A stretch of DNA of 64,000 bases from Candidatus Woesearchaeota archaeon (GTDB taxonomy: Archaea > Nanobdellota > Nanobdellia > Woesearchaeales > JACJVW01): NCBI GenBank assembly GCA_020637435.1, contig JACJVW010000002.1, positions 75,715 to 139,714 of the forward strand. Reading direction: 5' to 3'. Shown in pieces: positions 5,913 through 63,969 of this stretch (its first letter is position 1; each line of letters begins with the position of its first letter). The notes beneath the pieces are model-generated. The model ran no database searches. It was not told the origin of the DNA and worked only from the letters and a program-made list of their open reading frames with translations. The translations under genes were made by a program, and so were the position numbers.

Positions 5913-6719
5913 ATGAAGTTTATAAGAAGCATGTTCATGGCACTGATTGTCCTGGCTCTCATTTTCATCTACAACTTTTATGACCTGTTGATAGATGAGA
6001 TTCTCATCATCGATAAGCTGCTCATCGTCGCTATCGCCTACTGCGTCATCGACCTTGCCTTCCATATCATCAGACATACACTCATCGCCCTGTATAACAA
6101 GAATGAGGCACATCCTCATCCTAATATGACACTAGGTATCAAGAGCATCAGTTATTTCCTGCAGTATTTCATGTTCATTTTGTACCTGGTCAATACCCTC
6201 TTCATCAATATCAAAGACCTGCTTACCTCCATCAGTATAGTAGCTGTAGCCATCGTACTCATTTTCAGGGAACATATTGTCAATTTCATAAACGGCATCG
6301 TCCTTATGTTCACTACAGGCATCAGTATCGGTGACGTCATCCAGATAGGAGACCACAGAGGAAAAGTAAAGACTATCTCCTTCCAGTATGTCGAGCTTGC
6401 GGATGACACAGGAGAGACCGTATTTCTCCCCAACAACACCATCTTTACAAAGGAGTTTCGCAACTATTCCAAAGAGAGGACCAACACCATACAATTGACC
6501 GTCAGGCTCAAAAGAACGAAGAATGACCTTAAGAAGTTCAAAGTTAATCTTCGAAAACTCATCGATTCGGAATTCAAGGACCAGACTACAAGCTCCAAAG
6601 TCATAACCACCATGGTGGATAAAGACTTCATCGAGACCAAAGTCCTGGTCAACGTTAAGAAGTATAATATGACCCTTGAGGATCAGCTAAAAAACAGGAT
6701 AAAAGAGATAGCGATCTAA
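5913..6719 (+). CDS. Small-conductance mechanosensitive channel (MscS family)
   Basis: TM helices are followed by ISIGDVIQIGDHRGKVKTISFQYVELADDTGETVFLPNNTIF, the MscS beta-domain signature. I chose the ATG at 5913 because TTTATAAA (5883-5890) starts exactly 30 nt upstream. The track ORF starts at a TTG at 5862. Confidence 0.75.
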   Translation: MKFIRSMFMALIVLALIFIYNFYDLLIDEILIIDKLLIVAIAYCVIDLAFHIIRHTLIALYNKNEAHPHPNMTLGIKSISYFLQYFMFILYLVNTLFINIKDLLTSISIVAVAIVLIFREHIVNFINGIVLMFTTGISIGDVIQIGDHRGKVKTISFQYVELADDTGETVFLPNNTIFTKEFRNYSKERTNTIQLTVRLKRTKNDLKKFKVNLRKLIDSEFKDQTTSSKVITTMVDKDFIETKVLVNVKKYNMTLEDQLKNRIKEIAI

Positions 6720-7087
6720 TCCTTCTTCTCTTTCATCTTTTTAGTGATGTCGATGTTTGCTCCACAGTCAGTGCACTGGACTCGATAAGTAGGTACACCC
6801 TTAATCGTCTTCCTTTTGTACATGCCTGTAGTTTCGCCATCTTTACCGCAGGATGGACATGTGTACGCAACACACAATGTTAATGTTGGTTCATACTCCT
6901 CCTTATCGACAGAGTAACTGCACTCAGGACACACATATTCCTTGGCACGCATCTTCACCTTGCCCTTTTCAACAGGCTTACCCATGAGACCCTTTCCGCA
7001 TTTTGGGCACCTCTCTTTGAAGACCCATGCACGAGCATGTCCACCCTCGGCAAGATCCCTATTAGTAAAATAACAAACTTCATCCAT
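6716..7087 (-). CDS. Double zinc-ribbon protein (4 x CxxC)
   Basis: CPKC, CPEC, CPSC and CTDC are spaced ~22-25 aa apart, giving two ribbon units. I chose the ATG at 7087 (MDEVCYF...); the longer ORF begins at a TTG at 7105. Confidence 0.5.
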   Translation of the reverse strand: MDEVCYFTNRDLAEGGHARAWVFKERCPKCGKGLMGKPVEKGKVKMRAKEYVCPECSYSVDKEEYEPTLTLCVAYTCPSCGKDGETTGMYKRKTIKGVPTYRVQCTDCGANIDITKKMKEKKD

Positions 7088-15895: not shown

Positions 15896-15897
15896 CA

Positions 15898-25061: not shown

Positions 25062-25100
25062 AGGCGAAACTCCGGATTCATTTATTAATCTTTGCTAAAA

Positions 25101-25120
25101 TCATCACTCATTAGTGATGA
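25101..25120. promoter_or_regulatory. Perfect 8-bp palindrome upstream of the tfe promoter
   Basis: TCATCACT-CATT-AGTGATGA, 40-59 nt upstream of the tfe ATG and just distal to the TTAATAAA TATA-like box (reverse complement of 25081-25088). Confidence 0.4.
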
Positions 25121-25431
25121 ACTTCAAATCCGATGTTTCGAGGCTATTGAATCATGCAAAGCTCATTAAAATACTTTTCCTATTCTACTTACCTAATCTA
25201 TAGTTTCTGAACTCCAATACACCCCTTTATTTTGCCTTTTAAAAGACTTTTGGATGTTCACCACGTAGGAGGCTACCAGTATACATATTTGTAAACCGGC
25301 TGCTGGAATGTACTGGTTATTTATAAAGAACCAAGGTAATCACATCTGTTTCCATACCAGCTCAACAATGCAGCATATCGGCTTGAGCGCTCCCGTAAAG
25401 TAATTTCGTAGGCCAAATACAAAAGAAAAGA

Positions 25432-25439
25432 TTTATATA
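25432..25439 (+). promoter_or_regulatory. TATA box candidate for the che operon
   Basis: TTTATATA preceded by a purine-rich AAAAGAAAAGA, about 70 nt upstream of the cheY TTG. AGGAGGTG Shine-Dalgarno at 25492-25499. Confidence 0.45.
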
Positions 25440-25505
25440 CCCCTCGAACTCCAACCAATCCATGTTGCAAAAGAGGACTCTGGCATTGACCAGGAGGTGG
25501 TATGA

Positions 25506-25871
25506 TTGACTAAAGTACTTATTGTTGATGACTCTTCTTTCATGAGAACCCTTATCAAAAATATCGTTAAGGAAAGGAATTGTGAGGTAATAGAAGCCAG
25601 TAATGCAGATGAAGCTATTGAACTCTACAAGGCTGAGAAACCGGATATCACATTCATGGACATCATCATGGAAGGGAAGACGGGTCTTGACGCGTTAAAA
25701 GAGATCCGTGCATTTGACGGTAACGCTATTGTCGTCATGTGTACCTCCATCGGTGGCCAGGAGCACGTGATCAAAGAAGCCGTCGACTATGGCGCAGCAG
25801 ATTTCATGACAAAACCATTCAAACAACAGGAGATCTTCAACGTCATAGACAAATACGGCAAAACACAATGA
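25506..25871 (+). CDS. cheY: Chemotaxis response regulator CheY
   Basis: 121-aa receiver domain (VLIVDDSSFMR...DITFMDIIMEG..G...MCTS...K). The TTG start lies 6 nt after AGGAGGTG (25492-25499). Confidence 0.9.
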   Translation: MTKVLIVDDSSFMRTLIKNIVKERNCEVIEASNADEAIELYKAEKPDITFMDIIMEGKTGLDALKEIRAFDGNAIVVMCTSIGGQEHVIKEAVDYGAADFMTKPFKQQEIFNVIDKYGKTQ

Positions 25872-26887
25872 TCAGGGTCATCGTGACCGACGACTCTGCA
25901 TTTATGCGAAAACTTCTTTCTGATGTCATCAACTCCGACCCTGAATTAGATGTCGTCACCACAGCAAGAGACGGACAGGACCTCCTTAACAAGATAGAAG
26001 AGTTTTCGCCCGACCTTATCACACTTGATATCAGTATGCCCGTCATGGACGGCATCACCGCGCTTAAGAAGATCATGGCTGAAAAACCTTTGCCGGTCAT
26101 CATGATAAGCGCTCTCTCTGATGAAGAGAATACATTTAACTGCCTCGAACTTGGAGCAGTCGATTTTATCCCTAAGACCTCCGGAATCATATCGATAGAT
26201 ATGAACAAGAAAAGGGACATCATCATCGAGAAGATAAAGACCGCAATGAAGGCAAAGCTTGAGCAGGGCATCACAGAACAGAATACGAAAGAATTCGCCA
26301 CAGGCAGCAAGCATAGTGATAAAGTTGTGCTTATTGGAGGTTCCACAGGCGGCCCTAAGGCGATAGAATCGATACTTCAGGCATTGCCCAAGGATTTCCC
26401 AGCTCCCATCCTCATCGTTCAGCACATCCCGGAGGAGTTTACCCTGGCCTTTGCGGCAAGACTTAACAGGACCGCCGAGATACAGGTCAAAGAAGCAGTG
26501 AACGGAGAATTAATCCGTCCCGGAGTTGCGTATATCGCCCCCGGAAATTTTCATATGCTCATCGATAAGATAGGCCATGAGCGTTGCATCAAACTTACAA
26601 AAGATGATAAGATACACGGCTTTAGGCCAAGCATCGACGCCTTATTCAGTTCAGCCGCAGAGAGCTATCAGAAAGATAGTGTTGGCATAATCCTTACCGG
26701 TCTTGGTGAAGACGGTAAGAAGGGCATGATGGACATCAAAGCGAAAAAAGGCATGACTATCGTGCAGGACCCAAAGACCTGCATTGTACGAGGTATGGCC
26801 GACAACATCATTCACGCCGAAGCAGCAGAGCGTATCATACCTTTAAATGAGATAGCACAGACGATAATCAAGATACTGAGGGAATAG
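25868..26887 (+). CDS. cheB: Protein-glutamate methylesterase CheB
   Basis: MIRVIVTDDSAFMRKLL receiver domain plus a CheB catalytic domain (VLIGGSTGGPKA, ILIVQHIP). The ATG overlaps the cheY stop (ATGA). Confidence 0.9.
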   Translation: MIRVIVTDDSAFMRKLLSDVINSDPELDVVTTARDGQDLLNKIEEFSPDLITLDISMPVMDGITALKKIMAEKPLPVIMISALSDEENTFNCLELGAVDFIPKTSGIISIDMNKKRDIIIEKIKTAMKAKLEQGITEQNTKEFATGSKHSDKVVLIGGSTGGPKAIESILQALPKDFPAPILIVQHIPEEFTLAFAARLNRTAEIQVKEAVNGELIRPGVAYIAPGNFHMLIDKIGHERCIKLTKDDKIHGFRPSIDALFSSAAESYQKDSVGIILTGLGEDGKKGMMDIKAKKGMTIVQDPKTCIVRGMADNIIHAEAAERIIPLNEIAQTIIKILRE

Positions 26888-26890
26888 ATT

Positions 26891-27262
26891 ATGAATGAAG
26901 AATACCTTGAACCATTCCTCGAAGAGGCGGAATCACAGATTTCCTGTCTTAAGGAAAATATTGAGAAAGTGAAGACAGAGCAGAATAATGAAACTTTTCA
27001 GACTATTCGAAGATGCGCCCACACACTCAAGGGTTCATCCGCGATCATGGAACTGACCAAACTGTCCGAATTATGTAAGATGGTCGAATATACGGGGAGG
27101 GATCTTGCAGAAGGGAAACTGGGATATGATGAGTCTGTACAGGCAAGCCTGGATAAAGTCGTTCCCACTCTTGTCTTAGAGGTAGAGAACATCAAAACTA
27201 ACAAAGCTGATGGACTGCCTGAGACAGGTACCCTTACGACTGAACTGCAAGCAAGACTATAA
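26891..27262 (+). CDS. Stand-alone HPt (histidine phosphotransfer) domain protein
   Basis: 123 aa. RRCAHTLKGSSAIMELTKLSELCKMVE is a CheA-P1-like HPt motif with the phosphorylatable His. Confidence 0.7.
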   Translation: MNEEYLEPFLEEAESQISCLKENIEKVKTEQNNETFQTIRRCAHTLKGSSAIMELTKLSELCKMVEYTGRDLAEGKLGYDESVQASLDKVVPTLVLEVENIKTNKADGLPETGTLTTELQARL

Positions 27263-29205
27263 TGTCAGATTACAAGGATGCTTTCATCAACGAGGCGCGT
27301 GAGCAGCTTGACAACCTTAGTGACGGGCTGCTGCTCCTGGAGAAGGAGCCGGACAATACAGACTATATCAATCAGGTGTTCCGTGCTTGCCATACCTTGA
27401 AAGGAAATGCAGCTATGATGGGCTATAACACCTTTTCTAAATTGAGCCACAGCATGGAGAATGTCCTCGCGAAGATGCGTGACGGTTCTCTGAAAGCCAA
27501 TGAGGACATTATCAACAGTCTTTTTGATGGCGCCGATATGCTTGAGCATGGCCTTGAGACCATCGATGCGCACGAAGCGGATCTTTCTGATACTGATGAT
27601 CTGATCCATAAATTCGATGTCATATCAGAGAAAAAACAGGAACTCACCCATGAGAATACCAACCTTCCAATGCAACTTGGACTTGATGACGGCCAGAAAC
27701 ATCAGATATGGCAGGCCAAAGAAGAAGGCTACCATGTCTTTCGGGTGACGATCATATTCAAGCCCACCTGTCTGCTCAAGGGCCCAAAGGCCATGGTGCT
27801 CCTAAGAGATAACAAGGACATTATGGAGCGCATCATATATGCGCATCCAAGCATTGATGACATCCGCAACGGAAAAGTTACATCCGGTGTTGACCTGGTC
27901 ATAGGAACAAAGATCAGCAAGGATGAACTCATTGAGAGGATGAATAAAGTCTCAGAAGTTGAATCAAGAGTTCTTGACCCCGAAGAGAACTACAGCATCC
28001 CCACACACATAGACCCGGCTAAAAGCCAGATAAAAAAAGATATCGTCAGGACCTTCTCCAAACCCATCCAGAGCATCCGCGTCGATGTCAAGAAATTGGA
28101 CAATCTCGTCAATATGGTAGGAGAACTGTTGATCGCAAATATGCAGCTCAAGCAGATAAGCAAAGAATCCAATCAGGCGAATCTGAGCAGCGTCACGAAC
28201 AGCATAGAGATACTTACGACTAACATCCAGGAAGAGGTCATGCAGGAGAGGATGGTACCTGTAGGACAAATCTTCAATCGCTTCCCAAGATTGGTAAGGG
28301 ACCTCTCCATGAAAGAGAACAAAAAACTGATCATCGAGATCAAAGGAGAAGAGATTGAACTTGATCGTAATGTACTCGATGAAATAAGTGAACCCCTTAT
28401 CCATATCATCCGAAACGCGGTCGACCACGGCATTGAGAAATCTGATGAGCGTATCAGAAGCGGTAAGAACATTGAAGGAAAAATTAGGCTTACAGCGACA
28501 AGAGAAAAGAATTCTGCTATGATTGTCATCGAAGACGATGGAGGCGGAATCAACACGGCCAAAGTAGTCCAGAAAGCGATCAACTCCGGACTAGTCACAG
28601 AAAGCGAGGCCAGAAGTATGTCCAGGCAGAAGATGCTTTCACTCATATTCACCCCAGGTCTAAGCACAAAAGACCAGATTACGGACATCTCTGGAAGAGG
28701 TGTTGGTATGGATGTTGTGCTCACAAAGATAAAGCGCCTCGGAGGCAATGTTAAAATCCACTCAAAAGAAGGTCTCGGAACAAGGATCGAATTATCCCTA
28801 CCACTTACATTGGCTATCATCTCATCCCTCATCGTACGAGTTGAAGGAGACAAGTATGCCCTTCCTCTAAGCAGTATCATAGAGACCATTGACCTGCAGC
28901 ATAAAAACATAAAGACCATCCAGGGAAATGAAATAATCCTGCTCAGAGGCCAGGAAGTTCCTCTTGTCCGCCTCAGTTCATTCTTCTATGCAAAAAGGAA
29001 GGACCTAAAAGAATACGCTGTCGTCATTACTGAAGAAGGTGATCGTAAAGTAGGTTTCATCGTCGATGAGATAGTCGACCAGCAACCTATTCTAATCAAG
29101 AACCTGCACAAACTGATACGGGGAGTAAAGGGCATAGCGGGAGCGACCATCCTTGGTGATGGCAAGGTATGTCTCATAGCAGACGTAAGTTCTATTGGAG
29201 TTTGA
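27262..29205 (+). CDS. cheA: Chemotaxis histidine kinase CheA
   Basis: P1 domain (RACHTLKGNAAMMG), P3 (IRVDVKKLDNLVNMVGELLI), P4 HATPase (HIIRNAVDHGIE; DDGGGI; GRGVGMDVV) and a P5 CheW-like domain. Confidence 0.9.
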   Translation: MSDYKDAFINEAREQLDNLSDGLLLLEKEPDNTDYINQVFRACHTLKGNAAMMGYNTFSKLSHSMENVLAKMRDGSLKANEDIINSLFDGADMLEHGLETIDAHEADLSDTDDLIHKFDVISEKKQELTHENTNLPMQLGLDDGQKHQIWQAKEEGYHVFRVTIIFKPTCLLKGPKAMVLLRDNKDIMERIIYAHPSIDDIRNGKVTSGVDLVIGTKISKDELIERMNKVSEVESRVLDPEENYSIPTHIDPAKSQIKKDIVRTFSKPIQSIRVDVKKLDNLVNMVGELLIANMQLKQISKESNQANLSSVTNSIEILTTNIQEEVMQERMVPVGQIFNRFPRLVRDLSMKENKKLIIEIKGEEIELDRNVLDEISEPLIHIIRNAVDHGIEKSDERIRSGKNIEGKIRLTATREKNSAMIVIEDDGGGINTAKVVQKAINSGLVTESEARSMSRQKMLSLIFTPGLSTKDQITDISGRGVGMDVVLTKIKRLGGNVKIHSKEGLGTRIELSLPLTLAIISSLIVRVEGDKYALPLSSIIETIDLQHKNIKTIQGNEIILLRGQEVPLVRLSSFFYAKRKDLKEYAVVITEEGDRKVGFIVDEIVDQQPILIKNLHKLIRGVKGIAGATILGDGKVCLIADVSSIGV

Positions 29206-29827
29206 TACTATGGATGATCTGAATTATTCCAGCAAACAATTGGATGTATTGAATGAGATGGCAAGTATCGGTTCGGGTAATGCCGCTACAGCGCTTTCAA
29301 AACTGCTCGGCAAAAGAGTAGTGATCAGCCCGATATCTTCAAGGTTAACACCTATTGAGAAGATCCCGGAAGAGATGGGTGGTGCAGACACTTTGGTGAT
29401 GTCTGTGTACCTAGGCATCAGCGGAGACCTTTCCGGAGATGCGGTATTCCTTAATCCAAAAGAACAGGCAATGCAGCTCATCGACTACCTTACAAACTGC
29501 AATAAGGAGAAAAGGACTGAACCCTGTGAATTAGACCTCTCCGCGTACAAAGAGATGTCCAATATCTTTACAGGCTCTTACATGAATGCGATCTCCACCA
29601 TGCTCAAGGTGAAGATAATCCCTTCAGTCCCTCACTACGCGAGCGATATGATAGGAAGCCTTATTGATTTCATCCTCAGCGACATAGGCCAAAGCGTCGA
29701 TTCGGCGCTTCTAATTAAGACAGACATAAATATAGATTACCAGGATATCGGGGGAGGATATATCATATTGTTCGACTTGGAGTCCCTTCAGAAGATGCTT
29801 AGGCTAAGTGAAGAATACAATGGATAA
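29195..29827 (+). CDS. cheC: CheC-family CheY-P phosphatase
   Basis: LDVLNEMASIGSGNAATALSKLLGK and SAYKEMSNIFTGSYMNAIS are the two CheC repeats. The first E-x2-N site reads E-M-A-S, so it is degenerate. Confidence 0.8.
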   Translation: MEFDTMDDLNYSSKQLDVLNEMASIGSGNAATALSKLLGKRVVISPISSRLTPIEKIPEEMGGADTLVMSVYLGISGDLSGDAVFLNPKEQAMQLIDYLTNCNKEKRTEPCELDLSAYKEMSNIFTGSYMNAISTMLKVKIIPSVPHYASDMIGSLIDFILSDIGQSVDSALLIKTDINIDYQDIGGGYIILFDLESLQKMLRLSEEYNG

Positions 29828-30308
29828 TAGGTCTATAATCGTTGGCATGGGAAACTATGCTGTCCGTAGGCATGGAGCTACATTGACATGTCTAGGTATA
29901 GGTTCATGCATAGCGGTTATGCTCTTAGACAGCGTCAACAAAGTGTATGGCATGGCGCACATCATGCTCCCCTACAAAAAACCATCATTCAAGACGGTCA
30001 ATCCCAATAAGTTCGCGGATGTGTGCATCCCAAAGACGCTTGACGCGATGCTAGAACTTGGTGCGGATAAAGGATTCATCAAAGCAAAGATCGCAGGCGG
30101 CGCCCACATGTTCCCATCGCTGGTCAACGACAAGATTGCTATCAACCAGCGGAACACCACCGCGGTAAAGACCGTGCTTCACAATCTCAATATACCCATC
30201 ATCGCAGAGGATCTTGGTGGTAACCACGGCCGGACCGTCTTCCTTGACACAGATACAGAACGAGTCACCATACAGATCAAATCTCTTGGCGTACTACGTG
30301 AACTCTGA
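29820..30308 (+). CDS. cheD: Chemoreceptor glutamine deamidase CheD
   Basis: LGIGSCIAVMLLD...GMAHIMLP...AKIAGGAHMF is the CheD core. The ATG at 29820 overlaps the cheC stop. The track ORF begins at a GTG at 29808. Confidence 0.85.
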   Translation: MDNRSIIVGMGNYAVRRHGATLTCLGIGSCIAVMLLDSVNKVYGMAHIMLPYKKPSFKTVNPNKFADVCIPKTLDAMLELGADKGFIKAKIAGGAHMFPSLVNDKIAINQRNTTAVKTVLHNLNIPIIAEDLGGNHGRTVFLDTDTERVTIQIKSLGVLREL

Positions 30309-31217
30309 TCATTCCCGCTTCTGATAGATCTTCTCATCACTATTGACAAAATGAAATTTGTTACGCGCAGTGCCGGTAAGTAGTTCGCTCTTGCCCATGA
30401 TGAAGTATCCGTAATTATTCAGACATGAATAGAAACCCTCATAGAGATTCTCTTTTGCTTCCTGGTTGAAATAGATGACTACGTTGCGACAGACTATGAT
30501 ATCCATGCCTGCCAGCAGAGAATCATTGAACAAGTCGTGATTAACAAAAGTGACGCTGTCCCGTATGCCGTCCTTCAAGATGTACACATCACCATCGGGG
30601 ATAAAATACTTATCTACCAGGTAGGGTTCGGTCTCGCTCAATTGGGATTGCGTATACTCACCGATCATCGCCTTATTGATAGCTTCCTGGTCGATATCTG
30701 TGCCAAAGATCTTGATATGTTCCGGCAGTTTCTTTTGATGAAGAATCTCGCACAGGATAATAGCGATAGTGTAGGGTTCTTCTCCGCTAGAACAGCCCGC
30801 ACACCAGATCTTTATCCCTTTGCCTTCCTTTTTTGAACGGAAAAGCTCTGGAAGAACAACATCCCGAATCTCTTTGAATACAAGCGCATTCCTAAAGAAA
30901 CGTGTCACGTTTACCGTCAGGTTCTTCAGAAGCTGATGCTGCTCTTCTTCATTGCCTTCTATGTATTGAAGATATCCGTCATACGTAGGTATCCTGGTGA
31001 TGAACATGCGTGAATGGACACGACGTTTGAGATAGCTAAGATGATACTTGTGCGAATCGAACCGAAGATTATCAGCAACATACTTCATAAGAGCGACAAA
31101 ATGGACTTCATCATCCGTGATGTGAAAGTCTGAGAATCCATAACGCACCTTATTGGCGGCCTCAACCATATATGCATACTGGTAGCCGGCGTTTATAAAT
31201 CTTATTGAGCTGATCAA
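30309..31217 (-). CDS. cheR: Chemotaxis methyltransferase CheR
   Basis: VTRFFRN and IWCAGCSSGEEPYTIAI are CheR SAM-methyltransferase motifs. It is convergent with cheD with zero intergenic bases. Confidence 0.85.
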   Translation of the reverse strand: MISSIRFINAGYQYAYMVEAANKVRYGFSDFHITDDEVHFVALMKYVADNLRFDSHKYHLSYLKRRVHSRMFITRIPTYDGYLQYIEGNEEEQHQLLKNLTVNVTRFFRNALVFKEIRDVVLPELFRSKKEGKGIKIWCAGCSSGEEPYTIAIILCEILHQKKLPEHIKIFGTDIDQEAINKAMIGEYTQSQLSETEPYLVDKYFIPDGDVYILKDGIRDSVTFVNHDLFNDSLLAGMDIIVCRNVVIYFNQEAKENLYEGFYSCLNNYGYFIMGKSELLTGTARNKFHFVNSDEKIYQKRE

Positions 31218-34590: not shown

Positions 34591-34662
34591 CTTTGTGTCT
34601 GCACAAATGAAATTGGTTCCAGAATACATGATTCATTTGCATTAAAGTACGAACACACAAAG
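34591..34662 (+). repeat. Nested inverted repeat containing the same GCACAAATG core
   Basis: CTTTGTGT (34591-34598) pairs with ACACAAAG (34655-34662). GCACAAATGAA (34601-34611) pairs with TTCATTTGC (34632-34640) with one bulged C. Confidence 0.55.
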
Positions 34663-40652: not shown

Positions 40653-41672
40653 ATGAAAAAGAAGCTGTTGATCGTATCGACCCTTATTCCACCGGTCGTA
40701 GGTGGCGCTGAGAAGATCGCTGCATCGCATGCAGCACTTCTCGCCAGGAGATTCGATGTGCATCTGCTTACTCTTTCACCCCATCCTGATCCGATACCGG
40801 GTGTCAAGATACACTCACTACCACAAAAACCTTTACCGACCCTCTATTATTCATTCCAAGGAAAATCTGTAATTGATAGTCTTTTGGAGAGGGAGCATTT
40901 TGATTACATCCATTCACACATGGCACTGCCATGGGGATACGTTCTGCGAAACGCAAAAGCCAAAAAAGTCATTACTCTGCATGGTTGCGAATACATCCAT
41001 AAGGACTTGCTCCACTATGTATTTGTCAAGCAGGCATTCAAGCACGCTGATGCAGTCATTTCGCCAAGCAGTTGGCTAGCAGAATACGTAGAAAATAGGT
41101 ATGGTCAGAACTGTATAGTCATCCCAAACGGCATCGACACAAAAATATTCAGAAGACTAAGCACGTACAGATCTGCACATACCGTATTTTATGCAGGTAG
41201 ATTGCTGCGCGAGAAAGGGATCCTTGAACTGTTAGAATGTGCTAAAAGGTTTCCAGAAATAAACTTCAGGTTTGCAGGTATGGGCCCCCTTGAGCCGTCC
41301 ATCGACCTGGATAATACCGAACTGCTCGGCACACTTAGCCCAGAAGGACTAGTAAAAGAATATAACAAAGCCACGGTGTGCATCTTCCCATCCTATAGGG
41401 AGAATTATCCTACAGTCGCTTTGGAGGCGCTCTCATGCGGTGCGCCCGTTATCGCCTCCAGGACCGGGTTCTCTGAGATAGTTGAACATGAACGCACTGG
41501 ACTCATCCTTGATACTGTGGCGCCTGATGAGATAGAGCGTGCACTGGATAGGTTGCTTACGGACAAAAAGCTCCAGCGTCGTTTCGCCAAAGACATACCA
41601 AAAAAAGCTCAACGCTTCAGTGCGAAAGCCATGGCCGATGATTACGCCAAAGTGTATGCTTCGTTGCGATAG
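40653..41672 (+). CDS. Glycosyltransferase, GT4 family
   Basis: PPVVGGAEK at the N-terminus and FPSYRENYPTVALEALSCGAPVIAS at the C-terminus. Confidence 0.8.
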   Translation: MKKKLLIVSTLIPPVVGGAEKIAASHAALLARRFDVHLLTLSPHPDPIPGVKIHSLPQKPLPTLYYSFQGKSVIDSLLEREHFDYIHSHMALPWGYVLRNAKAKKVITLHGCEYIHKDLLHYVFVKQAFKHADAVISPSSWLAEYVENRYGQNCIVIPNGIDTKIFRRLSTYRSAHTVFYAGRLLREKGILELLECAKRFPEINFRFAGMGPLEPSIDLDNTELLGTLSPEGLVKEYNKATVCIFPSYRENYPTVALEALSCGAPVIASRTGFSEIVEHERTGLILDTVAPDEIERALDRLLTDKKLQRRFAKDIPKKAQRFSAKAMADDYAKVYASLR

Positions 41673-43360
41673 ATCTGTACTTCCCCGTTATCATACACAA
41701 GTTCTACACTGCTCTCCTCAAGAGTACTTCTGTATTGATCTGAAAGTGGTTGACCGAGCAGAAAGCTCTCAAGTCGGTACATATCATCATATACGACAAT
41801 ATACTCGATCTTGTCAGTCTTTTCAGTATGTTGATAATAGCCGAATGTATATGCTTCGCTCAGGAAATTATTGATGCTTTTAGGATCACTCAGTGAGAAG
41901 AAATCTCGCGCAAACCCTTCTGTAAGAACATGGTATCTGAAATGTCCCCCGTAAATATCGAACACAGTGATATCACCAAGTATGAAAGCATCCGTCCTGT
42001 CATGCTCAGCAAGCCAAACCGCAGAAGCATACAACGCCTCATCCTTAACATCTCTAAATTCAAGTACGACAGGCGCATCCCTGCTCGCCAGAGCGGCACC
42101 ATAACCAAGAGTTACGCTTCCTGCAACATAGATGATGAACAGACCCGCCAGTACATAGCGAAGGTAAGTATCATCTTTTAGCAACATGACAGTCTGAGTC
42201 GCATGGAGGATGATAGGCAAGCTGACCAGCCAAAAGACAATGTGAGCAATGACCACCCAACTGGTACTCAGCAGTACGATGCTGATGCAGTATCCTCCAA
42301 GACCTATCAAGGTAAGATAACCAAGGAAAGAATGCGCTCTGGTACGAAGAATATGATAGATGCTGTATAAGCTCAAAAGGAGTAGACCTATCTGTGAACT
42401 GATGACAAGCGCGGTCTCAAACCAGGTATTGATATGGACCGTCTCGCCGATGACCTCTGAACTCCCGGTAAGGAATGAAGCAAGGACACCAACAAGATAC
42501 GCAAGATCTTTCTCTACAAGGACATGTGCAAATCCGTAGTTCCAGAGCATGATGAGTGACATATAGTATGCCAGATAGATCAGCTGATGACCCTTGTCCC
42601 TGACAAATAGGATAGAGCCACCTATGAAAATCGCGTAAAGATATGAAACGCTGTGATCAGCAAGTACGATGAGCGGTGATATGATGTACAGCATCATTAG
42701 AAGACGTCTCTTATGTTCACGAAAATACCGGATCATGATGATAAGGGCGAAGATTACGATGATGGCTGCGATAAACCTTCGAGATATGCTCATGAAGAAT
42801 AGACGTGGCGAAAAAAGGAAGATGACCATTGAGATGAACGCATGCTCAGGATCCTTCACAAGATTTTTTATGATTGCATAGACACCAAGAACAAACACTA
42901 CACGCAGCATGAAGATAAAAATGTATTTTGATAGGAAGAATGGTGACAACCCTGTAGCTTCGCTTAGGAAAGCGAGCGTCAGATGCATGACAGGATTATA
43001 CCCGTAGTAGTTCTCAGCGAATCCAGCCCCAAGAGTGGGATCCCACAATCCTTCTTCAGCGAAGATCTCAGCAAGCTGAGACTCAAAGATTTCATCCCTC
43101 TCAAGATTCCATATATCTGCATAGGTAAACACTGATACAAACGTTAGACCTATTTCAGCAAGGACGATCGCATAAATTTTCCATTCCTTTTTCGCAAAAC
43201 TAAGCGTATGCAAAGCAAGTCCGATGATAAGGAACCAAAAGAGGAATACCGGAGCACCTTCTGTGCGCGAGATGGAGAACACGAGCAGTGTAAGGACTAG
43301 GAGAAATTGTGTGATAACCGGCCCCATTACGGACCATCCAGGAATCTTCACACTGCTCAT
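41642..43360 (-). CDS. Polytopic membrane protein, O-antigen-polymerase or GT-C-like, with a soluble C-terminal domain
   Basis: About 12 TM helices plus a ~150-aa C-terminal domain. I chose the ATG at 43360, which overlaps the flippase stop (ATGA). The longer ORF to 43543 would overlap the flippase gene by ~190 nt. Confidence 0.45.
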   Translation of the reverse strand: MSSVKIPGWSVMGPVITQFLLVLTLLVFSISRTEGAPVFLFWFLIIGLALHTLSFAKKEWKIYAIVLAEIGLTFVSVFTYADIWNLERDEIFESQLAEIFAEEGLWDPTLGAGFAENYYGYNPVMHLTLAFLSEATGLSPFFLSKYIFIFMLRVVFVLGVYAIIKNLVKDPEHAFISMVIFLFSPRLFFMSISRRFIAAIIVIFALIIMIRYFREHKRRLLMMLYIISPLIVLADHSVSYLYAIFIGGSILFVRDKGHQLIYLAYYMSLIMLWNYGFAHVLVEKDLAYLVGVLASFLTGSSEVIGETVHINTWFETALVISSQIGLLLLSLYSIYHILRTRAHSFLGYLTLIGLGGYCISIVLLSTSWVVIAHIVFWLVSLPIILHATQTVMLLKDDTYLRYVLAGLFIIYVAGSVTLGYGAALASRDAPVVLEFRDVKDEALYASAVWLAEHDRTDAFILGDITVFDIYGGHFRYHVLTEGFARDFFSLSDPKSINNFLSEAYTFGYYQHTEKTDKIEYIVVYDDMYRLESFLLGQPLSDQYRSTLEESSVELVYDNGEVQIYRNEAYTLA

Positions 43361-44580
43361 GATCTCACCATGATGATCGTTCTGTATAGTGTCACAACTG
43401 CTACAAGCCCGTGTCCTAAAAGCCAGGCGTAGCCGACATAGATAAGGCCATACGGAAGCCACAAGACACACAGGATTAGTATGATAGAACTGATGGCAAA
43501 CTGAGTGATAGCTACTTGCACTACTTTCTTCTTGATATTGCACATTGTCATATAGATAGCATTCACACTTTCAGGTAGCATGGCCAAAGCGAAGAGAAAG
43601 AGCAAAGTCGCCGCATCATCTGCATAATTCTTTCCAAAAATATGCAGCAGCAATTCCCCAAAGAAGTAGAGGAATACTACTCCACTGATGAGCAATGGAT
43701 ACAAAACCAGTACAGCTCTCCCCAGGCTTCTCTTCATAGTCGAGACCCTGGCCTGAGATAGCATAGGGATAGTGATAGCGTTAGTCGCAAATCCAAGCAA
43801 ACCTGCGATCATCCAGGTGATATAGTAGTACGCTGATTGCTCTGCATCAAGTATTACTGCTATGATAAAAGGTAGCAGTAGTCGCGGAAGCATCTCAAAG
43901 AATTGAGCCAGATAATTGGCAAAGCCGTAAGGCATGATATGTGTGAGCACATCGATATGCAAAGTCAATCTAAAACGGGGGAGCATCGCAAGACCTATGA
44001 GCAAAGCGAATGCAGCACTGATCGTCCATGCGAGGTAGATGCCAAAACCGCTCCAGGATATGAGCAGGAACAGCAGACAGATCTTAAGCACACTGAAGAC
44101 CAGATTCTTTAATGCAAGTCTGGAAGATTCGTTGCGTGCGATAAATATTGAGTCTATCAATAAGAACAATGAATAGACGACGCTAAGCACGACGAACATT
44201 GACTGCGTCAAGATGGTATGGAATAGGAATGCCTGACCGCTAAGTAGCATATAGACAGTAAATATCGTCGCAATGACAAATGACATGATTGCCGTCATGC
44301 TTAAGGTCGTACCGATGATCCGGCTTTTAAGCTTCACACGTGGCAGAAAATAGATCATCGCAACATTAAGTCCAAGAAATGAAGCTATAGCGATAAGCTC
44401 CATGGCTGAGATGATGATAGTCGCATGACCTACATCATCAGCAGACAATGAACGGGCAGCCAATGTCCAGAAGATGAATCCTAAACCAGCGGTAAGCACA
44501 GAGTTGGACATAAGCCAGAACGATTCCCGATAGTGTTCATGGCGCTCTAATCTTGACCTGATCCATGCTAAGTAGTCCAT
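43357..44580 (-). CDS. Polysaccharide flippase (Wzx/MOP superfamily)
   Basis: 407 aa with about 12 TM helices. The N-terminal NSVLTAGLGFIFWTLAAR pattern is typical of polysaccharide biosynthesis (Polysacc_synt) proteins. Confidence 0.65.
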   Translation of the reverse strand: MDYLAWIRSRLERHEHYRESFWLMSNSVLTAGLGFIFWTLAARSLSADDVGHATIIISAMELIAIASFLGLNVAMIYFLPRVKLKSRIIGTTLSMTAIMSFVIATIFTVYMLLSGQAFLFHTILTQSMFVVLSVVYSLFLLIDSIFIARNESSRLALKNLVFSVLKICLLFLLISWSGFGIYLAWTISAAFALLIGLAMLPRFRLTLHIDVLTHIMPYGFANYLAQFFEMLPRLLLPFIIAVILDAEQSAYYYITWMIAGLLGFATNAITIPMLSQARVSTMKRSLGRAVLVLYPLLISGVVFLYFFGELLLHIFGKNYADDAATLLFLFALAMLPESVNAIYMTMCNIKKKVVQVAITQFAISSIILILCVLWLPYGLIYVGYAWLLGHGLVAVVTLYRTIIMVRS

Positions 44581-50284: not shown

Positions 50285-51963
50285 ACCTCTATCTGCTTAA
50301 GCCTATTGTGGTCTCTGGTCTTGGACTCATGTTGTGGGTATTGCTTCTCATAACCACACCGGTAGTTACGCTAGGCACACTTGTAGCCCTAATAGCAATG
50401 ATAGAACTGGTGACGCAGCTTTCCTTGATCTGCAAAGAGCAAAAATCCCAATACATTGCAGCTGCTCTTATGGGAACAGTTATCTATGTCTTCATCAATC
50501 CAGCTATGGTGATCCTGCAGCTCTTGCATCTCAACTTCAGAAGAGGCGATTCCGTTGAGCTTGCCAGCAAGAAAGAGCAGCAGTATTTCACAAAGAATAC
50601 ACTCAATGGCATCATAAGGATCCTGCTTGTATGCATCATCTTGATAAGCGGAGAAGCATCAGTCGCATCGCTGCTTATAGCGTATATTCTGCCCATGAGC
50701 ATACAGTTCGTCGCACACCCGATGAAGAGATCCAGTCTTGCCTTCGCCGGATTAGAACATGCAAAAGAACAATTGACGTACATCGCTCCTCATATATTCA
50801 CCCTCTCGGTCTATCTGTCTGCAGGACCTTCTCATGCTCTTAGCTGGTATCTCACCTGGCTAGCCATGACTCTTTTGTATTTCTATGTCGACAGCAATAT
50901 AGACACGAAGCACCCACTTACAAAAGGGTTCGAGCAGATACTGACTTCAGCGTTAGCGGTGGTCATAGCGATTCCTGCAGGCATCTCTATCCTCAACTTC
51001 ATTGGACTTGACACCTATTTTGTACTTCCGCTTTTACTCTCAGCAATACCCTATGCTTTGGTACGTCCATACATGGCATTGACAAAAACACCTTTGCCCA
51101 CTCATGCTCTCCTAATCACTATTACAGTGGCAAGCGCATCTCTGCTGCAGCCTTCCATCATCGGTTGGACATGGCTCTTACTAATGTGCATGGTGAGTGC
51201 CATATCCTTTGCGTTGCTGCGAAAGACTGAGCGGTTAAATACTGCATCATATGATGAAGAGGCTGAGGCCTGGAAAGAGGACCTCACCACTCCAGCCAAG
51301 AGATATTATTATCAGACCCTCTACGAAAATCTGCTCCCAAGTTCTCTGAAGGGAAAGAAAGCGGCAGATATCGGGTGTGGTGCAGGCGCATACACATTTG
51401 AACTTCACCGCAGGGGTGCGAAAGAAGTGCACGCGGTCGACATGTCGCAAGGCATGCTTAGTGTGCTAAGAAAAAGAGCACGTGCAAATGCTTTGAAAGT
51501 CTTGGAAAAACAGGCATCTATCGAGAAGCTTCCTTACAGGAAAGCCACATTCGATCACGTCATCAGTGTGGGAGTACTTGAATGTCTCCAGGATGACGCG
51601 AAAGCGCTTGCTGAACTTCACCGTGTCCTAAAGGAAAACGGAACTCTTGGTCTTCGCGTCATAAACAGGCGCGGAATATGGGGTGCACTTGAACAATGCA
51701 GAGAAACCCTGGGCATTCCCTCTGGAATTAAAGCCCCGACATACTACACATATGAAGAGATCCTGGAAAGATTGACCAGGGCGGGTTTCATCATTGAGGA
51801 AACGAAAGGAAGCATCATATTCCCCGCGTTCTTACTACCCTTCGCAAGATTGCTTGAAATGTTCTTCATTCCTATCGCGAAAAGAATTGAGAAAAAATAT
51901 CAGAATAACAGATGGTGCATTGACCATCTCTACTATGCGATATGCATCAAAGCGAAAAAATAA
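50278..51963 (+). CDS. Fusion of a polytopic membrane domain with a class I SAM-dependent methyltransferase
   Basis: The N-terminal ~320 aa have about 9-10 TM helices. The C-terminus carries motif I (AADIGCGAGAYTFEL) and motif II (DHVISVGVLECL). Confidence 0.65.
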   Translation: MVNLYLLKPIVVSGLGLMLWVLLLITTPVVTLGTLVALIAMIELVTQLSLICKEQKSQYIAAALMGTVIYVFINPAMVILQLLHLNFRRGDSVELASKKEQQYFTKNTLNGIIRILLVCIILISGEASVASLLIAYILPMSIQFVAHPMKRSSLAFAGLEHAKEQLTYIAPHIFTLSVYLSAGPSHALSWYLTWLAMTLLYFYVDSNIDTKHPLTKGFEQILTSALAVVIAIPAGISILNFIGLDTYFVLPLLLSAIPYALVRPYMALTKTPLPTHALLITITVASASLLQPSIIGWTWLLLMCMVSAISFALLRKTERLNTASYDEEAEAWKEDLTTPAKRYYYQTLYENLLPSSLKGKKAADIGCGAGAYTFELHRRGAKEVHAVDMSQGMLSVLRKRARANALKVLEKQASIEKLPYRKATFDHVISVGVLECLQDDAKALAELHRVLKENGTLGLRVINRRGIWGALEQCRETLGIPSGIKAPTYYTYEEILERLTRAGFIIEETKGSIIFPAFLLPFARLLEMFFIPIAKRIEKKYQNNRWCIDHLYYAICIKAKK

Positions 51964-52740
51964 TTATCTGGTAAGATTTTTCCAGTAACCGATTCTGCCG
52001 GATACAAATTTGCCTTCAGGTCCGTCATTAAAAGAATGACGTTCACCTGCTTCAATCTCTCCAGTTAGACCTCCGCAGGAAGCTCGTACACCAAGCTTGG
52101 TATCAGCGTAGTTATTCCATGGCTGGTCTTTGGTGTCACCTTTGAGCTCAAGGGCAGCGTACGGACCAATCTCTAAGCAGCCGTTCTCATAAACTTTAAG
52201 CCATAGTTGACCAGCTACTCGTCCCTGAAGGTTTTCAGAAATGGTATTGTAGTCAAAATCACCATCAACAATAAACACTGGTTGAAGCGGGAAGTTCTGG
52301 TCATCGCCATATTGTTTGCCTGACCATGCTTTCCAGACATTACCATAGAGTTCTGCAAATTCTTCACTCTGGAGCCATTCCTTCTCGTCTGCATACTGAA
52401 TATACCCAACTTCTGCACCAACCCTGAATGGACCGTGCACATATGCGGTACCTACACCAATCTTGATGTAATTACCCCAGACATTGTCCTTCTCAAATTC
52501 ATGGGCAATCTTTCCCCTAACCACAGGGAGAAGCAGAGTACCATCCTTAGGATCCTTTCCAAGTGCGTTGTAACCAAGATAAGCTTCCGCGTAAGCAGGT
52601 TTCTCATCCTGCCAATCTGCGTCCTCTACCATGGCTTCCAGATATGCTGAACCGACAAGCTCAGGGGCTTTCTCAGCCTGAGCATTTGGAGCAAGAAGGG
52701 CTCCAGCAAGTAAACTTGATGCAAGTAGTTTCTTATTCAT
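51964..52740 (-). CDS. Secreted beta-strand-rich protein with outer-membrane beta-barrel-like periodicity
   Basis: Signal peptide MNKKLLASSLLAGALLAPNAQA|E. It has repeated amphipathic strands (YIKIGVGTAYV, FRVGAEVGYIQY, VAGQLWLKVY, LEIGPYAALELK, KLGVRASCG, KFVSGRIGYW). A GAGG Shine-Dalgarno precedes the ATG. Confidence 0.45.
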   Translation of the reverse strand: MNKKLLASSLLAGALLAPNAQAEKAPELVGSAYLEAMVEDADWQDEKPAYAEAYLGYNALGKDPKDGTLLLPVVRGKIAHEFEKDNVWGNYIKIGVGTAYVHGPFRVGAEVGYIQYADEKEWLQSEEFAELYGNVWKAWSGKQYGDDQNFPLQPVFIVDGDFDYNTISENLQGRVAGQLWLKVYENGCLEIGPYAALELKGDTKDQPWNNYADTKLGVRASCGGLTGEIEAGERHSFNDGPEGKFVSGRIGYWKNLTR

Positions 52741-52869
52741 AGGATTAACCTCACTGATAAGTAGTGAGAACCCCTCTGCATTTATAAAGCTTATGAGTAG
52801 TCCCTATACAATAGTAACTTATTTAAATACCTTCAAGTTCACAAGTTCAGAAGAAAGAGGGATAATAGT

Positions 52870-59967: not shown

Positions 59968-60576
59968 CTAGCTTATCATCACCAGCATGAACTGAAGCAG
60001 ATTTGCCAATAAATGCGCGACCATCGGATACACCAAAGAAGCCTTTTCCTTATTTCTCATCAAGTGACCCACAAGGTAGCCGAATACAAGATAACCTATG
60101 AAGAATCTGATGTCAAGCCTGAAATGAACGATAGCGAATACCAGCGCCTGGATACCGTTCGCAAGATGGAAGGGCATCATAGTCCTGCCAAACGATAGCA
60201 GCATCCCACGAAATACATATTCTTCAAGAAGACTTGCGACAATAAGCAGGATTGTGAAGATGATGAGAGGACCTTTATCCAATTCCCCCAAAAAGTAGAA
60301 ACCAGAGACAAAACCAAGCAAAAGCGCTATACTGAAGAGATTAAGGCTGAATGGATGTTCAAAAAAAGGCACTTCCAGATTATATGTCTTTACGACCACA
60401 TAACCAAAGATGAACAGAAATGCCATGGAGAAGATATTTAGCGTCATCTGGGACACTGGAGCTCCGAGCCATACAGCGTAATAGTGACCGATGATGGGCA
60501 TGATGATGATGAATATCGTACCAAGGATCGCCATCGCGTACCCAAATCCAATATGTGACTTTAAAGATGCAGCCAT
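59968..60576 (-). CDS. CPBP family intramembrane glutamic endopeptidase (CAAX/Abi)
   Basis: Motifs EEYVFRG, FAIVHF and HLLANL sit in TM helices. Confidence 0.75.
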   Translation of the reverse strand: MAASLKSHIGFGYAMAILGTIFIIIMPIIGHYYAVWLGAPVSQMTLNIFSMAFLFIFGYVVVKTYNLEVPFFEHPFSLNLFSIALLLGFVSGFYFLGELDKGPLIIFTILLIVASLLEEYVFRGMLLSFGRTMMPFHLANGIQALVFAIVHFRLDIRFFIGYLVFGYLVGHLMRNKEKASLVYPMVAHLLANLLQFMLVMIS

Positions 60577-61022
60577 GTATCGATCTCCTTCGCTATAGTC
60601 TTCATATCCTCTGTAGTCCTCTTTATATCTTTCTCTATCTCCTCGATGAGATACCTAAGACTCTCAGCCCGAAGCGCATATCCCCTTCCTTTATGCACAA
60701 CGATGCCTGACTGCAGAAGTTTAAGCAGATGATGGTTCACCGTACCTCTTGAAAGCTTAAGTTGTGCAGCAAGCTCGTCTGAAGTCAGAGACTCCCTGTT
60801 CTTCGCTGCCTTGAGCAGAAGGATGAATAGACGAAAGTTAGAGCGTTCCTTGTCCCGCTTTGAAAAAAGACCAAGCGAGATAGCTATCCACTGCAACTGG
60901 TCATTAATATTACCCGACCTTGGTCGGGGCTCGTGCACAATGGTTGCCCGGTAATCCATAATGCCCTCATGGGAAAAGAGGTATTTAATCATTTCGACGT
61001 TTTCAACTAAATTAAAAAGCAT
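60561..61022 (-). CDS. Winged-helix (ArsR-like) transcriptional regulator
   Basis: LTSDELAAQLKLSRGTVNHHLLKLLQSGIVVHKGRGY is an HTH plus wing. It overlaps the CPBP gene by 16 nt and is divergent from groES. Confidence 0.65.
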   Translation of the reverse strand: MLFNLVENVEMIKYLFSHEGIMDYRATIVHEPRPRSGNINDQLQWIAISLGLFSKRDKERSNFRLFILLLKAAKNRESLTSDELAAQLKLSRGTVNHHLLKLLQSGIVVHKGRGYALRAESLRYLIEEIEKDIKRTTEDMKTIAKEIDTWLHL

Positions 61023-61118: not shown

Positions 61119-63025
<1,907 letters not shown>

Positions 63026-63036
63026 AACACTTCGTA

Positions 63037-63141
63037 GCACAAATGTACGAAAAATGATTTTGACCAAACCATGGGATGGAGGAAATTTAAGCAATCAGCT
63101 TGAAGAGAAACTTCCGGTTTGGTCAAAACAAGCATTTGTGC
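63037..63141 (+). repeat. Structured repeat unit 1 (long imperfect hairpin)
   Basis: GCACAAATG (63037-63045) pairs with CATTTGTGC (63133-63141). TTTTGACCAAACC (63058-63070) pairs with GGTTTGGTCAAAA (63116-63128). Confidence 0.7.
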
Positions 63142-63170
63142 GCAGAAGTGTTTCAAAGAAGTACTCAAGG

Positions 63171-63266
63171 CCCCAATGTACGAAATAAAATTTTGACCAC
63201 CAAGGGTTGTGCTGTAACCCATCAAAAAGGTGAAGCAACACTCGGTGGTCAAAAGGGGCATTGGGG
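63171..63266 (+). repeat. Structured repeat unit 2 (homolog of unit 1 with compensatory stem changes)
   Basis: CCCCAATG (63171-63178) pairs with CATTGGGG (63259-63266). TTTTGACCACC (63191-63201) pairs with GGTGGTCAAAA (63244-63254). The internal ATGTACGAAA..TTTTGACCA is shared with unit 1. Confidence 0.7.
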
Positions 63267-63296
63267 TCGAAAAGTACTTCCCAACGACATTTCGTA

Positions 63297-63323
63297 GCAC
63301 AAATGTAATTTAAGCATTTGTGC
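63297..63323 (+). repeat. Mini repeat unit 3: perfect 9-N9-9 palindrome
   Basis: GCACAAATG-TAATTTAAG-CATTTGTGC. Its flanks repeat the unit 1 flanks (TTCGTAGCACAAATGTA is exact at 63031 and 63291; GCATTTGTGCG.AGAAGTGTT occurs at 63132 and 63314). Confidence 0.75.
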
Positions 63324-63459
63324 GAAGAAGTGTTGTACAAAGATGAGCAATACATTTTAACGAATGAACGATAAGGAATCTTGACCTAACGTAATCCCTT
63401 ATCTTTCTTTTTTTATATTGTTTTGAATGTCATTCGTAAAAGTGTTTCAAGGTGATACA

Positions 63460-63969
63460 ATGACACATGCGCACAAAATGCACGGCAAGCACCCAGAGCA
63501 GGATCAGTCCGTAAAAGAAGAAATAGAAGAAAAAGTCGAAGAACTACCAGTTGAGAAGACAAAGGAAGAAGAGCTCACGGAATCACTGCAAAGGCTTCAA
63601 GCAGAATTTGAGAACTACAGGAGGCGAGTGCAGCAGGAGATGAATGACAGTGTCAAGTTCGCTTCAGTACAGCTCATAAAAAAATTGCTGCCCATAGTGG
63701 ATTCGATAGAGCATGCAAAAGTCTCAGAAAAAGATGACAAAGAATACGCAAAAGGCGCGCGTCACATCTTTCAACAGCTCAATGATGTACTAAAGAAAGA
63801 AGGGCTGCAGAAGATAAACGAGACAGGTGTCAAATTCAATCCGTACATCCACCAGGCGCTTATCACTGAAGAAGCAGATGAGAAAGATATCATCCTGCAG
63901 ATACTGCAGCCAGGATACAAAGTGCATGATAAAGTCATTGAGCACGCTAAGGTGAAAGTATCGAAATGA
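63460..63969 (+). CDS. grpE: Nucleotide exchange factor GrpE
   Basis: LQRLQAEFENYRRRVQQE...LLPIVDSIEHA...PGYKVHDKVIEHAKVKV. I prefer the ATG at 63460 (AGGTGA Shine-Dalgarno at 63449-63454, TTTATATT at 63412-63419). The track ORF starts at 63427. Confidence 0.85.
   Translation: MTHAHKMHGKHPEQDQSVKEEIEEKVEELPVEKTKEEELTESLQRLQAEFENYRRRVQQEMNDSVKFASVQLIKKLLPIVDSIEHAKVSEKDDKEYAKGARHIFQQLNDVLKKEGLQKINETGVKFNPYIHQALITEEADEKDIILQILQPGYKVHDKVIEHAKVKVSK

Follow-up and report, generated by a model that had tools for sequence, protein, structure and literature searches.

We analysed the spacer between the chaperone genes groEL and grpE in a 64-kb stretch of DNA, hereafter the window, from a metagenome-assembled genome of Woesearchaeota (a DPANN archaeon). 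The GroEL encoded in the window is 100% identical to an NCBI protein of 'Candidatus Woesearchaeota archaeon' and its GrpE is a 100% match to a 169-residue NCBI Woesearchaeota protein. The chaperone locus occupies the final 3.5 kb of the window and contains groES (61119–61382, + strand; Pfam Cpn10), groEL (61385–63025, + strand; Pfam Cpn60) and grpE (63460–63969, + strand), with a 97-residue open reading frame (ORF) and then dnaK following beyond the 3′ end of the window. That Woesearchaeota commonly possess GroEL/ES and DnaK–DnaJ–GrpE of bacterial type is known from earlier work (PMC8204110). The ATG at 63460 was taken as the start of grpE because it is preceded by a GGTGAT ribosome-binding site (63451–56) and because the resulting length fits the 169-residue NCBI protein; the groEL–grpE spacer then spans 63026–63459 (434 nt). 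The spacer sequence is base-for-base the same in the assemblies of two independent sequencing runs, and an assembly artefact is therefore excluded.

The spacer is predicted to fold with a minimum free energy of −159.5 kcal/mol and a z score of −10.9 on the + strand. The − strand reaches a z score of −9.4; the minimum free energy of the + strand is lower by 18 kcal/mol, a difference that we do not regard as decisive. A single-stranded DNA version of the spacer folds equally significantly (z = −8.8). In a survey of intergenic regions the spacer gave z = −12.2, whereas 13 others in the window all stayed within |z| ≤ 2.1; its structure is far outside what chance would give. No local inverted repeats in the window are stronger than those of the spacer. 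The third-ranking inverted repeat (22 nt, 82% complementary, 48 nt apart) lies at 43275–43366 inside an ORF (41642..43543, − strand) and is the only long local one outside the groEL–grpE spacer.

Four related hairpin units in the groEL–grpE spacer

Four hairpin units (U1–U4), arranged head to tail with linkers of 1–15 nt between them, fill the spacer over its whole length. They share one orientation and follow each other collinearly along the + strand, their asymmetric loop TACGAAA lying on the 5′ side. A first-pass annotation of this DNA had described three related units; the family is real, but it has four members, with U4 added, and the arms are longer than had been recognized. U1 (63023–63155, + strand) is a full-length, three-tier hairpin with stems a (63023–33/63145–55), b (63037–46/63132–41) and c (63058–70/63116–28), of which a and b are separated by a 3 × 3 internal loop (GTA/GCA). 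Its 23 nt arms, TGAAACACTTCGTAGCACAAATG/CATTTGTGCGCAGAAGTGTTTCA (63023–45/63133–55), are 87% complementary and begin at the groEL stop codon, the TGA of which (63023–63025) forms the first three nucleotides of the outer stem. The predicted folding energy of U1 is −56.1 kcal/mol. U2 (63157–63282, + strand) is a full-length but diverged unit with stems a (63158–65/63273–80), b (63169–79/63258–68) and c (63191–201/63244–54, continuing inward), an additional outer stem GAAGTACT/AGTACTTC and a folding energy of −55.3 kcal/mol. U3 (63284–63336, + strand) is a U1-type unit with two internal deletions and corresponds to the 9-N9-9 palindrome to which attention had first been drawn. It contains stems a (63284–93/63327–36) and b (63297–306/63314–23) and the loop TAATTTAAG, has 22 nt arms that are 82% complementary and folds with −26.5 kcal/mol. 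The stems on which the original description was built are all present: GCACAAATG/CATTTGTGC in U1 (63037–45/63133–41) and again in U3 (63297–305/63315–23), TTTTGACCAAACC/GGTTTGGTCAAAA in U1 (63058–70/63116–28), and CCCCAATG/CATTGGGG (63171–78/63259–66) and TTTTGACCACC/GGTGGTCAAAA (63191–201/63244–54) in U2.

U4 (~63349–63449, + strand) is the most diverged unit and consists of outer arms (63352–67/63430–45; 16 nt, 88% complementary) that enclose an inner hairpin (63370–76/63397–403). Its 3′ end, CGTAAAAGTGTTTCAA, is 88% identical to the 3′ end of U1, both finishing in AAGTGTTTCA (CG-AAAGTGTTTCAA), and a second direct-repeat match of U4 is 67% identical. The entire spacer is enclosed by a perfect inverted repeat of 10 bp, TGAAACACTT/AAGTGTTTCA, which starts at the stop codon of groEL and ends 2 nt short of the ribosome-binding site of grpE. 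The units, at 53–133 nt, are without coding capacity and the small ORFs within the spacer have no Pfam match.

The kinship of the units is visible in their alignments. U1 and U2 align over their full length, including the apical parts, with ~56% identity, and the likeness of the 3′ ends of the units extends beyond the stems (TTTCAA). The arms of U3 are 95–96% identical to those of U1, and U3 retains the AATTTAAGCA of the U1 interior (63084–93 in U1 and 63307–16 in U3). A direct repeat, AAGCA, marks the boundaries of one of the two deletions. Near-identical arms and two internal deletions thus bear out the earlier suggestion that U3 is U1 without its interior, and the 9-N9-9 geometry of U3 arose because the two deletions in a U1-like copy left a loop of nine nucleotides. 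A covariance model was built from U1 and U2 and run without filters over the window. U1, as a training sequence, scored 154 bits; U3, which was not in the training set, was recovered with 34.4 bits (E = 1.4e-6) and U4 gave a weak collinear match (10.5 bits, E = 3.2).

Covariation was counted in a hand-made structural alignment of the 33 base pairs of U1 with U2, in which 22 pairs are unchanged, one is kept by a one-sided change, seven are kept by double changes and three are lost. Pairing is therefore retained at 30 of the 33 positions, compared with 19.6 ± 2.1 when the same 20 substitutions are placed randomly; none of 100,000 random-substitution trials reached 30 (P < 1e-5). Further double changes are found in U3 (two) and U4 (four to five) in the same table. 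The base pairing has been preserved by compensatory changes while the loops and apical parts drifted, and the observation that both arms changed together between U1 and U2 with pairing kept is upheld by the seven double substitutions.

Search for further copies and comparison with mobile repeats

Neither blastn-short nor the unfiltered covariance model found a further copy of the units, whether within the window (64 kb) or in the 9 kb that make up the rest of the 73-kb contig. The first-pass annotation had reasoned that scattered copies with target-site duplications would reduce the family to a plain MITE (a transposable element of the miniature inverted-repeat type); within these 73 kb of the genome there are no extra copies and no target-site duplications. 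The 20 nt arm pattern CAYTTCGTAGCACAAATGTA has no match in the GTDB genomes and JGI metagenomes, collections that do not contain the source genome. The shorter pattern AATGTACGAAA-N3-8-TTTTGACCA gave 12 metagenome matches and a 17-mer gave two in viral contigs (IMG/VR), all of them chance matches in which the inverted partner is absent. A BLAST search of the spacer against plasmid and phage collections returned nothing. The translated antisense ORF over U1–U2 has no match among 1.84 billion protein representatives, a negative that is uninformative. Rfam has no match to the window at the gathering score, and at E ≤ 10 the spacer matches only noise-level eukaryotic small nucleolar RNA and microRNA models and one unrelated small RNA model. 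As far as can be seen in the 73 kb and the collections searched, the array is restricted to this locus.

The main rival to the explanation that we favour below is that the units are a small non-autonomous palindromic mobile element (MITE-like, REP-like or of the IS200/IS605-derived PATE type) that inserted here several times. U1 and U3 would then be young copies of one subfamily and U2 and U4 older ones, the covariation of the arms would have been inherited from master copies selected for mobility, and any hairpin effect on the mRNA would be incidental. The units do have the build of a MITE, with terminal inverted repeats of 22–23 nt around a short non-coding core, and the near identity of the U1 and U3 arms across a U2 that is 56% identical is most simply obtained by independent insertions. 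The absence of the array from all relatives examined (see below) also fits insertion. However, no other copy was detected in the 73 kb or the collections searched, and target-site duplications are lacking: the U1 flanks TGA/TCA and the U3 flanks ACG/TGT merely extend the inverted repeat. Four copies lie in one orientation within 1–15 nt of each other, and a common orientation would arise by random chance in one case in eight. No transposase, RAYT or TnpA/TnpB domain occurs in the Pfam tables of called genes for nearly the whole 73-kb contig. Assemblies based on k-mers break at near-identical repeats, and the two independent k-mer assemblies pass straight through the spacer, which speaks against many near-identical copies. 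The missing duplications, the uniform orientation and the lack of a transposase domain argue against a classical MITE; a low-copy mobile repeat is still compatible with the data. On balance we consider a mobile origin of the array rather unlikely, while ranking it directly behind the favoured explanation. One lead towards TnpB/IS605 was followed and dropped: a 123-residue ORF at 6716–7087 (− strand) has a faint match to the Cas12f1/TnpB 'TNB' domain that consists only of a zinc ribbon, in what is a multi-zinc-ribbon protein.

Two groups of bacterial repeats resemble the units. The REP sequences (for repetitive extragenic palindromic) of enterobacteria and their bacterial interspersed mosaic elements (BIMEs) are, like the array, extragenic palindromes clustered between the genes of operons. 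REP sequences are 20–40 nt long and G+C-rich, occur in hundreds of copies with alternating orientation in BIMEs and are tied to RAYT transposases; the tetranucleotide GTAG precedes the stem. GTAG also precedes the main stem in U1 and U3, a feature that favours a mobile element. The units here are nevertheless 53–133 nt long, have three stem tiers and are all collinear, with GTAG before stem b only in U1 and U3, and the short length, G+C richness, high copy number, alternating orientation and RAYT link of REP sequences were not found. The second group comprises MITE-like bacterial repeats, namely bcr1 from the Bacillus cereus group (~155 bp), Correia/NEMIS, ERIC and RUP. These are non-coding elements of 100–160 nt with terminal inverted repeats that form long hairpins at the RNA level, and such structured repeats are often found just downstream of genes, as here. 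The copies of bcr1 also differ by base-pair compensatory changes in addition to forming RNA-level hairpins (PMC3184786), a point in favour of the mobile reading. The array differs from these repeats in its confinement to one locus with four tandem same-orientation copies, in the lack of duplications and of a second locus in 73 kb and in its DPANN host.

The chaperone operon in relatives and operator readings

We compared the locus with five archaeal relatives identified by GroEL (64–77% identical), two of which (L031 and L039) were the only archaeal loci in a mostly bacterial GroEL search of GTDB genomes. In all five grpE lies downstream of groEL, and in none do the spacers contain the units of the window. 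Its absence from all five marks the array as an expansion specific to this lineage within a conserved chaperone operon. L021, L022, L024 and L039 have the gene order groES–groEL–grpE. The groEL–grpE spacer measures 27 nt in L021, 84 nt in L022 (z = 0.3, unstructured) and 83 nt in L039 (z = −2.6, mildly structured); the ~84 nt spacers of L022 and L039 are too short for comparison with the longer ones. In L024 (Woesearchaeota GCA_016935095.1) both the 219 nt groEL–grpE spacer (6645–6863; z = −5.4 to −6.4) and the groES–groEL spacer (4836–5000; z = −8.0 to −8.7) are structured. In L031 an hsp20 gene stands between groEL and grpE and is followed by a structured spacer of 169 nt (8430–8598; z = −4.7 to −5.8). 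The sequences of the structured spacers of L024 and L031 are unrelated to the units of the window, and the promoter-side and divergent spacers of the same relatives' loci show no structure. The spacers that follow groES and groEL in L024 share a hairpin unit of their own (AACCTTTTAAATCGGCGGAC... and AAGCCTTTAAATCGTTCGAC..., with 78% identity across 46 nt and 73% across 37 nt), the start of which immediately follows the stop codon in both cases; on a small scale this parallels the family in the window. A role for hairpins at this position of the operon is thus plausible.

Other features of these loci were noted. The L031 spacer at 8430–8598 holds an 80% near-copy of the ribosome-binding-site and start region of hsp20 (GGGGGTGATTGATATGACAG), followed by an apparent 15-codon ORF (read by eye). 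A CxxCxxCC-domain protein is encoded directly after grpE in most relatives (L016, L021, L022 and L024), with one or two further genes besides it in L021, L022 and L024, and in L019 dnaK follows grpE immediately. The 97-residue ORF between grpE and dnaK at our locus (L001:12597–12890) has no Pfam match.

The first-pass annotation had likened U3 to CIRCE, the bacterial heat-shock operator bound by HrcA, with which it shares a 9-N9-9 inverted repeat beside chaperone genes and a TAGCAC string. The analogy breaks down in sequence and geometry, and equally in host domain and position. The CIRCE consensus TTAGCACTC-N9-GAGTGCTAA has no match in the window at up to three mismatches. When U3 is aligned to CIRCE by the 9-N9-9 geometry only three of nine positions agree per half-site, and when it is aligned on TAGCAC the half-site spacing is wrong, so that the register of the half-sites differs. 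U3 is derived by deletion from a 133-nt unit. Its position, 137 nt ahead of grpE and also upstream of the sole TATA-like box, is like that of a 3′ untranslated region (UTR), unlike that of CIRCE, which sits between a promoter and the first gene of the operon. The host is archaeal with TATA-type promoters, in contrast to the bacterial sigma-70/sigma-A setting of CIRCE. The earlier remark that no hrcA is visible is supported, as no HrcA domain occurs in the Pfam tables of called genes, which span ~62 of the 64 kb of the window; the uncovered segment (~50921–52868) contains one complete 258-residue ORF and the tail of a 561-residue ORF. We regard a proposed relative of the units at 34591–34662 as unrelated: it shares only a 9-mer of chance frequency, its region gives z = 0.5–0.6 and the covariance model has no match there. 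The array is not a CIRCE/HrcA operator; the likeliest readings are an RNA-level operon spacer and a small palindromic repeat element.

A broader version of the operator idea, in which the palindromes are double-stranded DNA sites for some other heat-shock regulator controlling grpE–dnaK, can be considered independently of CIRCE. The regulator could be the ArsR-type neighbour or another dimeric factor. A 153-residue ArsR-type winged-helix protein is encoded at 60561–61022 (− strand; Pfam HTH_5, 30.7 bits, above the cut-off), divergent from groES, and orthologous syntenic regulators are present in L021 (58% identical) and L024 (47%). This context gene is a candidate heat-shock regulator of the groES operon. 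The presence of palindromes within a chaperone locus and of a conserved regulator gene adjoining the operon would agree with DNA operators, as would the placement of U4, the arms of which flank the predicted TATA box, with the right arm covering the expected transcription start. Several observations nevertheless make this reading highly improbable. Besides the missing CIRCE consensus and HrcA domain, relatives with the orthologous regulator and the same operon do without the array. Arms with at least 30 paired bases, 9–90 nt apart and differing among U1, U2 and U4, are unlike the sites of one dimeric protein. In the compensatory changes it is the sequence that varies and the pairing that persists, the reverse of the outcome expected under sequence-specific binding. 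Finally, the candidate operator of groES, AGTCTCGCC-ATA-GGCGACT (61025–43), has no counterpart in the spacer.

The candidate groES operator itself is an imperfect palindrome upstream of the groES TATA box. With the ArsR-type regulator it forms a candidate archaeal heat-shock regulator/operator pair. No motif common to the groES promoter region and the spacer, or to the promoter regions of the relatives, was detected. Other regulatory and structural classes were also considered for the spacer. An RNA thermometer of the ROSE or fourU type fails because the ribosome-binding site is not sequestered, GGTGAT (63451–56) and the ATG (63460) lying outside every predicted stem. A bulge–helix–bulge, a kink-turn, a C/D-box small RNA, a retron non-coding RNA, a CRISPR array and an archaeal replication origin were set aside on inspection of the sequence, as the required motifs or neighbouring genes are absent.

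Transcription signals and a possible role on RNA

Two motifs in U4 bear on how the operon may be transcribed. A run of seven T residues (T7; 63408–63414, + strand) stands directly after the inner hairpin of U4 and is the only run of at least five T on the + strand of the spacer. The TATA-like box TTTTATATT (63411–63419, + strand) lies inside U4 with its centre ~45 nt upstream of the grpE ATG. Archaeal transcription terminates at oligo-T tracts, and we infer that the T7 run may mark the end of the groESL transcript and that TTTTATATT may be the promoter of grpE–dnaK. The latter is read as a promoter because its spacing from the start codon resembles that of a recurrent box of the window, CTTTATAA(A), which is found ~20–55 nt before start codons (the groES box is centred ~50 nt upstream). 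Boxes of this type occur upstream of many genes, for example at 46065, 48695, 17816, 19108 and 52740 (− strand), and CTTTATAA(A) could represent a genome-specific TATA/B recognition element consensus.

As the best explanation we tentatively favour, at less than even confidence, a locally amplified intercistronic or 3′ UTR hairpin array that acts on RNA. According to this proposal, a single intercistronic hairpin would have grown in place into an array of ~130-nt units by tandem duplication, followed by divergence (U1 versus U2 versus U4) and finally by internal deletion (U3), with the bracketing TGAAACACTT...AAGTGTTTCA repeat as a possible surviving trace of the original hairpin. Since no oligo-T tract precedes the T7 run, U1–U3 and the inner hairpin of U4 would be transcribed as the 3′ UTR of groESL; groESL transcripts would run through U1–U3 and end in U4, which would give a 3′ UTR of ~385 nt. 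The stacked hairpins could then act as barriers to 3′-to-5′ decay, shielding the message from 3′ exonucleases, and the array could insulate groESL from grpE–dnaK, with transcription restarting at the TATA-like box inside U4. The placement is that expected of stabilizing hairpins, in that U1 starts at the groEL stop codon and stable hairpins precede the only oligo-T tract.

Bacterial operons offer models for such a function. Intercistronic stem–loops set segmental mRNA stability in the puf operon of Rhodobacter capsulatus and in malE–malF. As proposed for the array, these very stable hairpins immediately follow a cistron of high expression, and the cistron downstream is expressed less. They differ in being single or REP hairpins, in contrast to the four homologous units of 50–130 nt described here, and an archaeal counterpart is proposed by analogy. 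As Stern et al. (1988) is cited in PMC3184786, REP/BIME sequences can stabilize the upstream mRNA segment.

Several points weigh against this explanation. Transcription through the array, the 3′ end of the transcript and the promoter are all deduced from motifs. The stem alignment used to count covariation was made by hand and favours pairing somewhat. U1 and U3 resemble each other far more closely than they resemble the intervening U2. Simple tandem duplication would not lead to this, and block duplication, gene conversion or independent mobile insertion is needed. A modest number of dispersed copies is possible, the search having covered ~73 kb of the genome. The G·T and A·C oppositions in the stems number five and six, respectively, and thus show no strand bias of the kind expected for a sense RNA. 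Given these balanced oppositions and antisense and single-stranded DNA folding that is nearly as good, the data do not favour RNA over DNA as the selected molecule, and template switching between the arms or one protein recognizing both ends are candidate DNA-level causes of the arm symmetry.

The same two features, the even balance of wobble and A·C oppositions and the significant folding of single-stranded DNA, also fit a neutral cluster of DNA palindromes, in which arm symmetry is kept by intrastrand template switching or gene conversion at replication and which persists because it is harmless. The presence of the array in a single lineage agrees with this as well. Such a cluster is nevertheless improbable in a compact genome with short spacers, where the other long spacers are unstructured and where it would place 400 nt of cruciform-prone DNA in a key operon, and it does not account for the parallel structured spacers of unrelated sequence that L024 and L031 have at these operon positions.

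Those parallel spacers invite a more general proposal. Four covarying units in the window and an independent, unrelated unit after both groES and groEL in L024 would agree with a scenario in which Woesearchaeota took over the bacterial groESL and grpE–dnaK genes without HrcA/CIRCE and tune the relative output of the cistrons post-transcriptionally through hairpin arrays that arise and evolve in place. Segmental mRNA stabilization of the REP type would then have an archaeal counterpart, recurring throughout the lineage and possibly responsive to temperature. In this general form the proposal is speculative and we judge it unlikely.

If the hairpins of the window do act on RNA, as we tentatively favour, they would show how bacterial chaperone operons that a genome-reduced DPANN archaeon acquired laterally can be regulated in the absence of the bacterial repressor system, and the tandem paralogous hairpins would offer a clean example of compensatory evolution in nature. 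If they are instead a mobile palindromic element, they would represent an uncharacterized repeat family in Woesearchaeota. Palindromic intergenic repeats that form mRNA hairpins are a well known phenomenon, and with a finding that rests on one genome and a function deduced from sequence the immediate impact is modest.

Two other gene clusters of the window were noted. A complete chemotaxis cluster (CheY-like, CheB, Hpt, CheA, CheC and CheD, with CheR on the opposite strand) occupies 25542–31169 of this DPANN/Woesearchaeota genome and is preceded by an unstructured divergent intergenic region of 480 nt (25062–25541). Bacterial-type MutS and MutL are encoded at 13331–17766 and UvrC and UvrA just upstream of the window (L110:14655–19794); for an archaeal genome of small size, the four proteins constitute a fairly complete set for DNA repair.

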